From a virus (Duplodnaviria; Heunggongvirae; Uroviricota; Caudoviricetes): a stretch of DNA of 64,000 bases. The notes beneath the pieces were generated by a model, which was given only the letters and a program-made list of their open reading frames with translations, did no database searches and was not told the origin of the DNA. Below, in pieces: positions 36,426 to 38,949 of this stretch (its first letter is position 1; every line of letters starts with the position of its first letter). Made by a program: the position numbers and the translations under genes. The stretch lies in IMG/VR virus record IMGVR_UViG_3300027777_000022; one strand, written 5' to 3'.

Positions 36426-37260
36426 TGAGTTTGTTTGTTAGTATTGGAGTCAGGTAGTCAGAGAAGATTTTTTGACTTTTATATCCTGGATGACGATCAT
36501 TGGGGTTGGCCTGATCAATGGACATTGACCAAAACGATTTGTATAAATTCAACCAGAGATCTGAGTTAATACCACCGTACATACGGTAATGTGTATGAAT
36601 CATATTATACAACTTTTCTATTTCATTATCATTTCTGGTTTCTACTTGTAGTAAATCTTGTGTGTAGTTAGGCAAGGAAGATGGTGTTGTAAATGGTGTG
36701 TAATCAAAGTATCCTGACGGAATGTCAAATAATGTATTAACAAAAAACAATTTAGATTTTCTGGATTCAATCTGAATCAATTTTAATATATTTATATATT
36801 TAATTAGATCAAGCAGTGCCCAATGATCGTTGGAAAATTTTCTTATTTGATCACCTATTTTACTTTGCCATTTTGCTGGTATGACAACGCCAGGGTTGAT
36901 GTTGATATCCGTGGATGTTAAAGATGATAACATTGTGGATGTGGGGTAAGTTTCTAATCCTAGATTATAATTAAGTCTACCAATTGCGCTCCAGGCCACA
37001 ATAACAATATCATAATGATCTTTAGTCAATGCACATGCAGTTTCGGTAAAGATCCATTGGTTGTTCTTACCAGTTACTGCAAGATTGGTAACCTGTGGGA
37101 CATCAAATACTTGATTGCACAATTGATTTACCCATAGATTAGAATCTGTAGTGTCAATTTTAAAAGGATCTGCTACAGTTGCATTTAATCCATACCCTGC
37201 TGTCATGCTGCATCCTACTACTAAAATTTGCGTATGTTTATGCACAGTTGCTCTTTTCAT
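36400..37260 (-). CDS. SGNH hydrolase-like protein
   Basis: VGCSMTAG, NLAVTG and D.HPG..SQ motifs. Start reassigned to ATG 37260, after TTGACT-17-TATTAT. Confidence 0.7.
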   Translation of the reverse strand: MKRATVHKHTQILVVGCSMTAGYGLNATVADPFKIDTTDSNLWVNQLCNQVFDVPQVTNLAVTGKNNQWIFTETACALTKDHYDIVIVAWSAIGRLNYNLGLETYPTSTMLSSLTSTDININPGVVIPAKWQSKIGDQIRKFSNDHWALLDLIKYINILKLIQIESRKSKLFFVNTLFDIPSGYFDYTPFTTPSSLPNYTQDLLQVETRNDNEIEKLYNMIHTHYRMYGGINSDLWLNLYKSFWSMSIDQANPNDRHPGYKSQKIFSDYLTPILTNKLNETMYHSY

Positions 37261-37293
37261 AATGTATATAATAGCATACACACAAACAAAAGT

Positions 37294-37323
37294 CAAAAAG
37301 ACAGGTGCCATTTAAGCACCTGT
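37294..37323 (-). terminator. Intrinsic terminator of the ATPase operon
   Basis: ACAGGTGC/GCACCTGT 8-bp stem followed by CTTTTT. Confidence 0.8.
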
Positions 37324-37329
37324 TGTAAA

Positions 37330-37363
37330 AGAGTCGCTGGGCTAGAAAAACGTCTGCGACTCT
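37330..37363 (-). ncRNA. 3'-UTR hairpin whose loop is antisense to the ATPase RBS region
   Basis: 8-bp stem AGAGTCGC/GCGACTCT. The 18-nt loop contains TTTCTAGCCC, complementary to GGGCTAGAAA at 38760-38769. Confidence 0.55.
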
Positions 37364-37650
37364 GTTTGGGACAAGCCCAAAATCTCACATGGCACTGCGT
37401 TGAATTTGAAAACCAGCTTCGGCAGCTTCGTCAGCTTCGTACTCGGTATCAACTGCATACAAAAACAAATCACCATCCCAAATTTCGTACATACACATTC
37501 CTTAAAGATAAAAACCAAGGCCTTGGACATCGACCAGGCACTCATGAACAAACAGAACCAACCCATGAAATTGCTGTTGTTTTCAAAACTGACCTTTGCA
37601 AGAAACGCATTACCCATCATCCAGATTATTTGTTCTAGAGCCAGATTCAT
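37342..37650 (-). CDS. Small membrane protein (3' extent uncertain)
   Basis: MNLALEQIIWMMG...GWFCLFMSAW. The ATG is 1 nt after the upstream stop; the 3' half overlaps the 35-aa ORF and hairpins. Confidence 0.4.
   Translation of the reverse strand: MNLALEQIIWMMGNAFLAKVSFENNSNFMGWFCLFMSAWSMSKALVFIFKECVCTKFGMVICFCMQLIPSTKLTKLPKLVFKFNAVPCEILGLSQTESQTFF
37385..37492 (-). CDS. Small acidic protein (35 aa)
   Basis: Translated by hand: MYEIWDGDLFLYAVDTEYEADEAAEAGFQIQRSAM, with an AAGGA RBS. Confidence 0.6.
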   Translation of the reverse strand: MYEIWDGDLFLYAVDTEYEADEAAEAGFQIQRSAM

Positions 37651-37651
37651 A

Positions 37652-37735
37652 TTACACCACAATCATTAATACAATGAACGCTGCCACCCATGGGTAGCCG
37701 CAATACAATGCTGCAATTACGGCTACCCAGGCCAT
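37652..37735 (-). CDS. 27-aa hydrophobic peptide
   Basis: Translated by hand: MAWVAVIAALYCGYPWVAAFIVLMIVV; TAATG-coupled to the ATPase stop. Confidence 0.55.
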   Translation of the reverse strand: MAWVAVIAALYCGYPWVAAFIVLMIVV

Positions 37736-38757
37736 TATGCTGCCTTCATGCAAGTGGTTTCTGCCAGGCGCTTCCAGTTACCTTCGCTGAGTTTACGCAA
37801 GTCAGCAATCTTCAATGCCATACGCAAGCTCATTTCACGCAAGCGAGTCTGATTGGTTTCCATAAACTCAAAGATTGCATCTTGTGTCTCTGGTTCAAAG
37901 TCGTAACCTTCAAACAACACACCATCTTTGGCAATCTGCTTGATACGCAGGATCTTGTCACGCATGGTGTCCAAGGTCAAGTCCAAGTAGTGGCAGCGCG
38001 ATTGCAGTGCATCCAAGTGATCCCGCAGCTTCTGCGATTTCATTGTTTCAAACTTCAAGTTGGTGATAAAGATCACTGAGCCTTTGAAGTCAAAGCTGTC
38101 TGGAATGCCTTCGCGACGCAGAGTGGAACTCTCACTCAACCAAGAAATCTTACGCTTCTTGCCAGAGTCCAGGGCACCTTTTAGCAAGTTCAGTGCCACG
38201 TCATCAACCAGGATTGAATCACAGTCATCAAACACCAGCACACAGTTTTCGTCGCTGTACTTGTAAAGAGTCTGATACAAGCCGATAGGAGTTGCTGAAC
38301 CTTTGACAACTTCTGCACGGAGGCGCTTGCCTGCGATACGATCAAACAGTGTGGCTTTGTCAATTTCTTGCTCGACACCAAAGCTCTTGCCCACACCAGG
38401 AGGGCCACTTACAATCATGGCACGGATGCTGCCGTCGATTGCAGCACGAGTCATTTCTGTGAGAATTTCAAAGCGCTCACGAATACGACCCATTGCAGCT
38501 TCTTCAGTTTCAGCAGCAACAAAGGCAGTCACAGGCACTTCAGGTGTATGCACGGTATCACCATTTACCATCTCATAGTCAGTGATGGCATCAACACGAA
38601 TGCGAACAGCAGCAGGACAGTTGGGAAAGTGTCCATCATTTTGCACTGTAACAAAGCCGCCTTTGGCACCAGTTTGAAAGCCGCTTACCAGTGTAAAGCT
38701 CTTGTTGTTAACAGACTTGCCGCGGTACTCGCCGCGAATAATACGAATTGCGCTCAT
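37735..38757 (-). CDS. AAA+ ATPase (early)
   Basis: GPPGVGKS Walker A, LVFDDCD Walker B, FITN sensor and ALQSR arginine finger. Confidence 0.9.
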   Translation of the reverse strand: MSAIRIIRGEYRGKSVNNKSFTLVSGFQTGAKGGFVTVQNDGHFPNCPAAVRIRVDAITDYEMVNGDTVHTPEVPVTAFVAAETEEAAMGRIRERFEILTEMTRAAIDGSIRAMIVSGPPGVGKSFGVEQEIDKATLFDRIAGKRLRAEVVKGSATPIGLYQTLYKYSDENCVLVFDDCDSILVDDVALNLLKGALDSGKKRKISWLSESSTLRREGIPDSFDFKGSVIFITNLKFETMKSQKLRDHLDALQSRCHYLDLTLDTMRDKILRIKQIAKDGVLFEGYDFEPETQDAIFEFMETNQTRLREMSLRMALKIADLRKLSEGNWKRLAETTCMKAA

Positions 38758-38789
38758 GGTTTCTAGCCCCGTTTTGTTAATATGCCACT

Positions 38790-38949
38790 ATTGTAGCAGT
38801 TGTTGAAATACCGGTCAACTCCTTTTTGCAGGATTTTTCCAACTTTTTTTGCAAAAACTGTGGGCTTTTTGCCACATTGTTTAGCAGTTTTTCTGTTGGT
38901 ATCTTTGTTGACATGTAGCTATTATAGCCGATCATGCAATACTGGTCAA
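38790..38949 (-). promoter_or_regulatory. Tandem sigma70 early promoters of the ATPase operon
   Basis: TTGACC-17-TACAAT (38790-38818) and TTGACC-17-TATAAT (38921-38949); operator-like palindromes at 38859-38876 and 38970-38987. Confidence 0.8.

Follow-up and report, generated by a model that had tools for sequence, protein, structure and literature searches.

A 3′-terminal RNA element of a freshwater giant-phage operon covaries with the ribosome-binding site of its ATPase gene

We found that the ribosome-binding site (RBS) of an AAA-type ATPase gene in a giant phage and an element at the 3′ end of the same operon are close to certain to pair as RNA, a conclusion drawn from the comparison of related sequences: the class of the RBS was the class of the 3′ element in 140 of 140 distinct loci, which fall into at least eight sequence classes. 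An earlier note on this DNA had claimed, as its central point, that a loop at the 3′ end of the transcript base-pairs with the first gene's RBS, and both the covariation among the 140 relatives and the predicted fold of the full mRNA support that claim. The pairing most likely causes the operon to repress translation of its own ATPase, as judged from its position over the Shine-Dalgarno (SD) sequence.

Layout of the ATPase unit

The unit lies in the window, by which we mean the whole 64-kb stretch of DNA that was analysed. This window comes from an IMG/VR virus record of 157 kb (G000) with an estimated completeness of ~45%; since a record of this length is only ~45% complete by this estimate, its source is taken to be a jumbo phage. 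The features previously reported for this region were checked and their coordinates were right; every one of them is on the minus strand, as are all features described below. A regex promoter scan of G000 identified, at genome position 70217 (38949 of the window), an upstream promoter, P1 (TTGACC, 17-nt spacer, TATAAT; 38921..38949), which heads a putative 52-codon ORF from the ORF list (38935..38777), and this ORF overlaps P2, the promoter of the ATPase unit. According to the sequence scan, P2 (38790..38818) is a consensus sigma-70-type promoter, with the -35 box TTGACC at 38818-38813, a 17-nt spacer, and the -10 box TACAAT at 38795-38790. Transcription from P2 would start near 38783, which would give a 5′ UTR of ~26 nt. 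The TTGACC...TATAAT arrangement is also present upstream of the ATPase gene in the relatives whose upstream sequence was inspected.

The ATPase gene (37735..38757) encodes a protein of 340 aa that matches Pfam AAA and AAA_16 as well as phrog_1250 (1.4e-82), and tblastn against phage records showed it to be homologous to an early ORF of the nrdC region in T4-like phages (neighbourhood in Yersinia phage fPS-90). A search for structural relatives of the ATPase found none with a solved structure. Its RBS contains the target site GGGCUAGAAA (GGGCTAGAAA as DNA; 38760..38769), which belongs to class A of the classes described below, covaries with the 3′ element, and occupies positions -12 to -3 relative to the ATPase AUG; the G-run that leads the target site is likely part of the SD sequence. 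Between the ATPase gene and the hairpin, ORF reading gave three micro-ORFs (37385..37735), which encode a hydrophobic peptide of 27 aa (37735..37652), a peptide of ~50 aa (start at 37650), and an acidic MYEIWDGDLFLY peptide of 35 aa (37492..37385). Searches of Pfam and PHROG returned no match for any of the three, and the set differs between relatives, with individual micro-ORFs gained or lost.

The 3′ end of the unit carries two hairpins. The stem-loop SL1 (37330..37363), identified from sequence and RNAfold, consists of a loop of 18 nt (37355-37338) on a stem of 8 bp (37363-37356 / 37337-37330), just as the earlier note had described it ahead of the terminator. The 3′ side of the loop holds the anti-RBS seed UUUCUAGCCC (37339..37348), which is separated from the 3′ arm of the stem by 1 nt; as DNA, the seed is TTTCTAGCCC (37348-37339), the exact complement of the target site (38769-38760), so that the reported 10/10 match also stands. 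The intrinsic terminator (37295..37323; sequence, RNAfold, and terminator scan) begins 6 nt after the end of SL1 and consists of an 8-9 bp stem (37323-37316 / 37308-37301) and a T-run (37300-37295), and the arrangement of SL1 and terminator is the same in the relatives. The T-run overlaps the -35 box (TTGACT, 37296-37291) of the next unit's promoter (37268..37296; sequence and promoter scan), in which a 17-nt spacer leads to TATTAT at 37273-37268, and the ORF of the next unit begins at 37260. RNAfold of the 3′ region recovered both SL1 and the terminator (-36 kcal/mol, z = -2.7), and a search of positions 37200-38900 on both strands against Rfam 15 gave no covariance-model match up to E = 1.

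The junction at 37323-37295, where the terminator runs straight into a sigma-70-type early promoter and the adjoining gene content varies among relatives, resembles PeSL, the cassette of stem-loop terminator and sigma-70-like early promoter of T4-like phages (PMC2839356, PMC4122927). PeSL comprises the terminator-promoter junction only, whereas SL1 and the anti-RBS seed form an extra upstream element outside its description. The terminator is followed by TTGAC in 97 of the 117 relatives with a terminator call, and at ~45% completeness a single additional terminator-plus-TTGACC junction is seen in G000 (genome position 133899). Relatives also differ in the genes that they carry between the ATPase gene and SL1, and in three loci (L076, L168, and L176) the insert is itself a cassette bounded by a PeSL-like junction. 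Since the terminator/promoter junction fits PeSL cassettes (PMC4122927), this modular gene content may be explained.

Covariation of the ribosome-binding site and the 3′ element

Within the 64-kb window, the exact 10-mer occurs at these two sites and at no others, and the five copies of GGGCTAGAAA with one mismatch are all within ORFs. The earlier note had called a match of this kind unlikely by chance, which is too strong. When each ORF of the 157-kb genome was searched for a perfect complement of at least 10 nt to its own -22..+3 region no more than 4 kb downstream, 14 of 266 ORFs on the plus strand and 16 of 302 on the minus strand had one; since ~5% of ORFs thus have an equally long RBS complement, the match in a single genome is unconvincing. 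Its position in a 3′-UTR hairpin loop adds weight, but the decisive evidence is the comparison with relatives. All terminators, promoters, and RBS/downstream complements of G000 were listed, and no other unit with the layout of SL1, terminator, and promoter was found among them; the other 10-11-nt RBS/downstream matches of this genome look like background and were set aside.

The relatives were collected by scanning IMG/VR five times with ATPase proteins. The first three scans yielded 213 loci, of which 145 are distinct, and the 140 distinct loci with at least 150 nt available downstream of the ATPase gene formed the comparison set. The largest class, B (111 loci), has the RBS GGAGCCAAC(C/U/A) and the 3′ element (U)GGUUGGCUCC, and class A, with GGGCUAGAAA and UUUCUAGCCC, comprises 12 loci, the window among them. 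The other classes, each given as RBS and 3′ element, are A2 (GGGCUAGUAA and UUACUAGCCC, 5 loci), C (GGAGCUAA(C) and (G)UUAGCUCC, 7 loci), C2 (GGAGCGAAA and UUUCGCUCC, 1 locus), D (GGAGUUGGC and GCCAACUCC, 1 locus), E (GGGAGUAGCA and AUGCUCCC, 2 loci), and F (CAGGAGC and GCUCCUG, 1 locus). Examples of matched RBS/element pairs are GGAGCCAAC/GTTGGCTCC, GGGCTAGAAA/TTTCTAGCCC, and GGGCTAGTAA/TTACTAGCCC, and further ones are GGAGTTGGC/GCCAACTCC and GGAGCGAAA/TTTCGCTCC. The last two scans added ~16 more distinct loci, including the pairs CAGGAGCUAA(C)/(G)UUAGCUCCUG and CGGAGCCA/UGGCUCCG. Two loci are exceptions: L233 lacks the element, and L226 retains 6 bp only.

We then counted base pairs over 10 core pairs in a register anchored at the first G of the SD sequence. 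Canonical pairs occupied 89% of the cells, as compared with a mean of 70% in column shuffles, and 0 of 2000 shuffles reached 89%; registers slid by 1-3 positions gave 26-52%. The check proposed at the outset, a search of homologous ATPase operons for compensatory changes between loop and RBS, thus returned eight matched classes with changes on both sides at 8 of the 10 core positions, and only the two leading G-C pairs are invariant. Class D differs from class B by four transitions per side, the pattern expected if change goes via G·U intermediates. One-sided core transitions produce G·U pairs, of which four forms occur, and no A·C pair, a bias that points to pairing of the sense-strand RNA rather than to a strand-symmetric DNA constraint. 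Some loci have non-pairing mismatches at positions 8-10. Chance could be invoked for the 10-nt match on the strength of the background of complements in this genome, but the agreement of the classes at every locus and the outcome of the shuffles mean that the comparative sequence data have already refuted a chance origin, the probability of which we regard as vanishingly small. Mapped on a nucleotide tree of the ATPase gene, the classes require 9 changes as against a shuffled mean of 28.5; this count is soft, since it could be inflated if the coding region recombined between backbones, and the eight distinct matched classes are the firmer figure.

The paired segment always begins at the first G of the SD sequence and continues in the direction of the AUG, whose A it reaches in many class-B loci. 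An extension onto the AUG via CGU, which had been suggested for the window, is not conserved: other class-A relatives have AGUGAA at this place, and one has UAAAGUU. The stem that encloses the seed is kept in 126 of the 140 relatives, with 5-11 bp that are mostly G+C-rich and in 41 sequence variants that preserve pairing. The seed of classes A, A2, B, and D makes up the 3′ portion of a loop of 9-21 nt, 0-3 nt away from the 3′ arm, and that of classes C, C2, E, and F is single-stranded and immediately 5′ of a small tetraloop hairpin. It is predicted to be largely unpaired in every class, and in all classes it is followed by a U-rich linker and then the terminator. MAFFT and RNAalifold applied to the 3′ regions recovered the terminator only, since the SL1 stems of different classes were misaligned, and SL1 was therefore scored locus by locus. 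The terminator alignment of the relatives has compensatory changes at 6 of 10 pairs.

The predicted duplex of seed and RBS has an energy of -17.2 kcal/mol in the window and of -13 to -25 kcal/mol across the classes. When the whole transcript of 1489 nt was folded, 38769-38760 paired with 37339-37348 in the minimum-energy structure, and the long-range helix also appears in the minimum-energy folds of 19 of 21 full-length relative transcripts, by a model that leaves the pseudoknot and ribosomes outside. Farther afield, the 1.7-kb region had no match among GenBank phages in a nucleotide search, and the pairing of RBS and 3′ element is absent at the ATPase homologues of Yersinia phage fPS-90 (T4-like) and Vibrio phage F86. 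Since it is absent in these distant homologues, the pairing appears to be limited to this freshwater jumbo-phage family. A candidate pairing in PA5oct amounts to a 7-nt match within a hairpin stem and was rejected as not significant, and a scan of IMG/VR with the PA5oct ATPase protein returned zero relatives.

Ways in which the pairing may act

The two partners probably share a transcript as a rule: in sequence scans of 138 loci, 134 had neither a terminator nor a sigma-70-type promoter in the stretch that separates the ATPase gene from the element. In L076, L168, and L176, which represent two class backgrounds, a terminator and a new promoter are inserted between the ATPase gene and SL1, so that fold-back on the same transcript could occur there only via read-through; the complementarity of RBS and SL1 is still perfect in all three, and the inserted unit has a duplicated leader, from which the target sequence is missing. 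L109 and L205 have other downstream genes and lack a promoter after the terminator, yet the element stays with the ATPase unit in both. Among the relatives, the seed lies 13 to 1554 nt (median 285) past the ATPase stop codon. The idea that the element serves as a timer has no specific support in view of this range, and since unit length is not conserved among the relatives, any such delay is not tuned.

The ATPase also stands out as a target. In five long related records, two of which are at least 97% complete, the only RBS with GGAGCCAAC is that of the ATPase, and the other copies of this sequence encode Gly-Ala-Asn in frame within fibre-like genes or are the anti-RBS read on the opposite strand. 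When the loop was paired with all 2406 candidate start sites of the window's genome, the ATPase start gave -19 kcal/mol (mean -6.5, SD 2.6) and ranked second, the first being an unverified ORF outside the window.

These data suggest a model in which a single early transcript would comprise P2-initiated leader (26 nt), ATPase gene, a few micro-ORFs, SL1, and terminator. Once its 3′ end is made, the mRNA would fold back, and the anti-RBS on the 3′ side of the SL1 loop, which the covariation matches over 10 bp with the SD region of the ATPase, would mask the RBS. Masking would be expected to block 30S binding and thereby limit the ATPase yield per transcript, and it would probably also hasten mRNA decay. 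Stacking of the 10-bp helix on the 8-bp SL1 stem, whose 3′ arm is 0-1 nt from the seed, could yield a pseudoknot-like helix of ~18 bp. Pairing over the SD sequence blocks 30S binding in icaR (PMC3868564), in CarZ/OppZ (PMC7398697), and with engineered downstream anti-SD sequences (PMC12697547), and these mechanisms would accommodate a brake on ATPase translation, or a feedback on it, either in cis or in trans. We favor the cis form, since both partners would normally lie on one transcript and an intramolecular contact is independent of concentration, and we give about an even chance to the proposal that the ATPase mRNA folds back in cis on its own RBS and so limits its translation. The SL1 element could also act on other copies of the ATPase mRNA.

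It is possible, if somewhat doubtful, that the repressor is instead a stable 3′-UTR-derived sRNA of ~80-90 nt, made up of SL1, the U-rich linker, and the terminator, that represses new ATPase mRNAs in trans. Such an RNA would be cut from the operon transcript or left after its decay, and its effect would be negative feedback or early shut-off, like that of OppZ and CarZ. Its layout would be that of many Hfq-type sRNAs, in which an exposed seed is followed by a single-stranded U-rich linker and a U-tailed terminator: here the linker reads CUUUUAYAACA, the terminator tail is ~7 U long, and the element is always immediately upstream of the terminator. The three loci with an inserted terminator and promoter argue in the same direction, as they retain perfect complementarity and the duplicated leader has no target sequence, and CarZ likewise targets the first gene of its own operon (PMC7398697). 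Neither a processing site nor an internal promoter is evident, however, and pairing in cis should be kinetically favored on any full-length transcript. A bolder version of the trans-acting sRNA, in which the classes are orthogonal "addresses" and mediate RNA-based incompatibility or competition among phages, strikes us as a long shot; if it were true, the 3′ fragment would silence the ATPase of a co-infecting giant phage of the same class, and a class switch, both ends together, would escape or avoid cross-repression.

The pairing may also be real and have another main role, as a processing site (e.g., for RNase III), in the protection of the end from nucleases, or in the opening or activation of the leader. 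The quasi-continuous helix of ~18 bp that is possible where the seed abuts the SL1 stem would suit such a role, and there are parallels in icaR, where the pairing promotes RNase III cleavage (PMC3868564), and in hbs, where a contact of the 5′ and 3′ UTRs governs nuclease access (PMC5737220). This role is nevertheless unlikely, given that the pairing runs from the first SD G toward the AUG, which is where known cases block the 30S subunit, and that the leader is just ~26 nt long. Very improbable, in turn, is a DNA-level inverted repeat, such as a protein-binding site or recombination sites flanking a cassette, of which the RNA complementarity would be a by-product. The two sites do flank a module of variable gene content that ends in a PeSL-like recombination hotspot, but every one-sided G·U on the sense strand is A·C on the other strand, the SL1 stem covaries like an RNA helix, one of the copies always sits at the SD position, the repeat spans only 7-11 bp, and no recombinase gene was noted adjoining the unit.

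Comparison with known systems

Mechanisms of this kind are known from bacteria, and the present one would be a phage case, with its function read from the sequence. To our knowledge, experimentally documented pairing of a 3′ UTR with an RBS is confined to a few bacterial genes. A full-text literature search found no description of pairing of this kind between a 3′ element and an RBS in phages. The same logic appears to be conserved in ~150 uncultured freshwater giant phages, and the base-pair covariation is clearer here than in most described bacterial examples. The classes form a natural series of matched and mismatched RBS/anti-RBS pairs with which one could test a 10-bp contact over 1-2.6 kb of translated mRNA against ribosomes, and cis against trans action. 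The ATPase, which is conserved from T4-like to jumbo phages, would be marked as a protein whose dose the phage controls tightly, and the eight classes could become orthogonal parts for synthetic self-limiting operons.

A parallel among phages is the T7 gene 1.1/1.2 mRNA, in which, as Saito and Richardson reportedly found in 1981, the RBS is paired with the 3′ end for as long as RNase III has not cut that end away. Like T7, the ATPase unit would give a phage early mRNA with a 3′-terminal sequence able to mask an RBS on the same molecule. In T7, however, the pairing is a side effect normally removed by processing, and we know of no covarying, conserved element described for it.

Among bacterial systems, one of the closest is icaR of Staphylococcus aureus, in which the 3′-UTR motif UCCCCUG pairs with the SD sequence and translation falls (Ruiz de los Mozos et al. 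2013, PMC3868564). As in icaR, a pyrimidine-rich 3′-UTR motif is complementary to the SD region of the same operon, with 10 of 10 bases in the window. The two differ in that icaR is one bacterial gene whose 3′ UTR is long, whereas here a phage operon of 1.1-2.6 kb is involved and the evidence comes from sequence comparison. The icaR motif mimics the anti-SD sequence and RNase III cleavage has been shown for it, whereas the seed described here extends past the SD sequence into lineage-specific bases and, unlike that of icaR, is predicted to be presented in a loop beside the terminator. OppZ and CarZ of Vibrio cholerae are RNase E products that are Hfq-dependent, act in trans, and are autoregulatory (Hoyos et al. 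2020, PMC7398697). They share with the present element the location at the 3′ end of an operon, the intrinsic terminator, and pairing with the translation start region of a gene in their own operon, which for CarZ, too, is the first gene. For OppZ and CarZ, the outcome is negative feedback, and RNase E, Hfq, and action in trans are proven, whereas our case is built on the comparison of genomes. Finally, anti-SD-like sequences hundreds of nt downstream pair with an RBS in cis, block initiation, and promote decay in experiments (Gill et al. 2025 preprint, PMC12697547), and here, too, a distant downstream sequence is complementary to an RBS of the same operon and may pair with it in cis. Gill et al. 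(PMC12697547) found such sequences to be depleted from genes as harmful, whereas in the operons described here the element is retained and co-evolves with the RBS, and it appears to be used rather than avoided.

A second micro-ORF that may read into the stem-loop

Between the ATPase gene and its terminator, the second of three micro-ORFs differs in length from its counterparts in related phages. In the relatives it usually ends in '...IF*' at 46-50 codons; in the window, a T-run within it is 1 nt shorter, so that this stop falls out of frame. The extended reading frame (37650-37342, minus strand) has 102 codons and runs over the third micro-ORF, then through the 5' arm of SL1, the stem-loop that carries the anti-RBS seed, to a UAG at 37344-37342 (minus strand), which lies within the anti-RBS loop. 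The shorter T-run may reflect a genuine frameshift, in which case SL1 would be unfolded by ribosomes, or it may be an error in assembling the homopolymer.

At L036 and many related loci of class B (one of the matched RBS/3'-element sequence types), another small hairpin lies directly upstream of SL1. Its sequence in some of the class-B loci is AUAACC-CUCCAA-GGUUAU, with the anti-SD core CUCC in the loop, and the equivalent hairpin in the window is UUGGG-CUUGU-CCCAA (37380-37366, minus strand).

Promoters on either side of the ATPase unit

The next unit has a compact promoter-to-start region (37296-37258, minus strand), in which only 7 nt separate the -10 box (TATTAT, 37273-37268) from the ATG at 37260, and the spacing in relatives is similar. 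Because of this short distance, translation of the 286-aa gene that precedes the UvsW-like helicase may rely on a leaderless mRNA or on one with almost no leader. On the other side, 131 nt upstream of the ATPase promoter P2, there is a further consensus promoter, P1. The 52-codon ORF that P1 heads (promoter and ORF together 38949-38777, minus strand) overlaps P2, and its stop falls 8 nt short of the seed's target site. Transcripts started at P1 would have the target site within a longer, translated leader.

Other possible targets of the seed

The best predicted duplex of the SL1 loop in the 157-kb source contig (-22.1 kcal/mol, G·U pairs included) is with UGGGCUAGAGGGC, which lies outside the window at ~115225-115250, upstream of a putative 159-codon ORF with a GUG start. 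In the 349-kb related record G001, GGAGCCAAC occurs 19 times, versus ~2.7 expected for the two strands combined. Among the copies inspected, the majority encode Gly-Ala-Asn in repetitive fibre-like proteins, and a seed acting in trans would therefore match many coding regions.

Variant arrangements at related loci

L086 carries two anti-RBS-like segments in tandem, about 750-800 nt past the ATPase stop: a class-B remnant (GGTTGGCTCCGG) upstream and a class-C element (TTAGCTCC) downstream, the latter matching the RBS of this locus. The pair may capture a class switch under way.

At L076, L168, and L176, a cassette is inserted directly after the ATPase stop, within the first ~1 kb. A 9-bp terminator comes first, followed by a TTGACT promoter, a leader, and a 153-aa gene; the leader duplicates that of the ATPase (CTTAGTAACACACAAAAGG) but without the target sequence. 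Since the cassette is found in backgrounds of class A2 as well as class B, its distribution suggests shuffling of the type seen for PeSL, the terminator/early-promoter cassette of T4-like phages.

In Pseudomonas phage PA5oct (L082, NC_071039.1), a hairpin, AAAGUAGCA-AGGA-UGCUACUUU, lies just past the stop of the ATPase homologue, and its 3' arm is complementary to AGUAGCA in the homologue's RBS (GGAGUAGCA), a 7-nt match with a chance probability of about 0.04. This RBS is similar to class E of the freshwater phage family.
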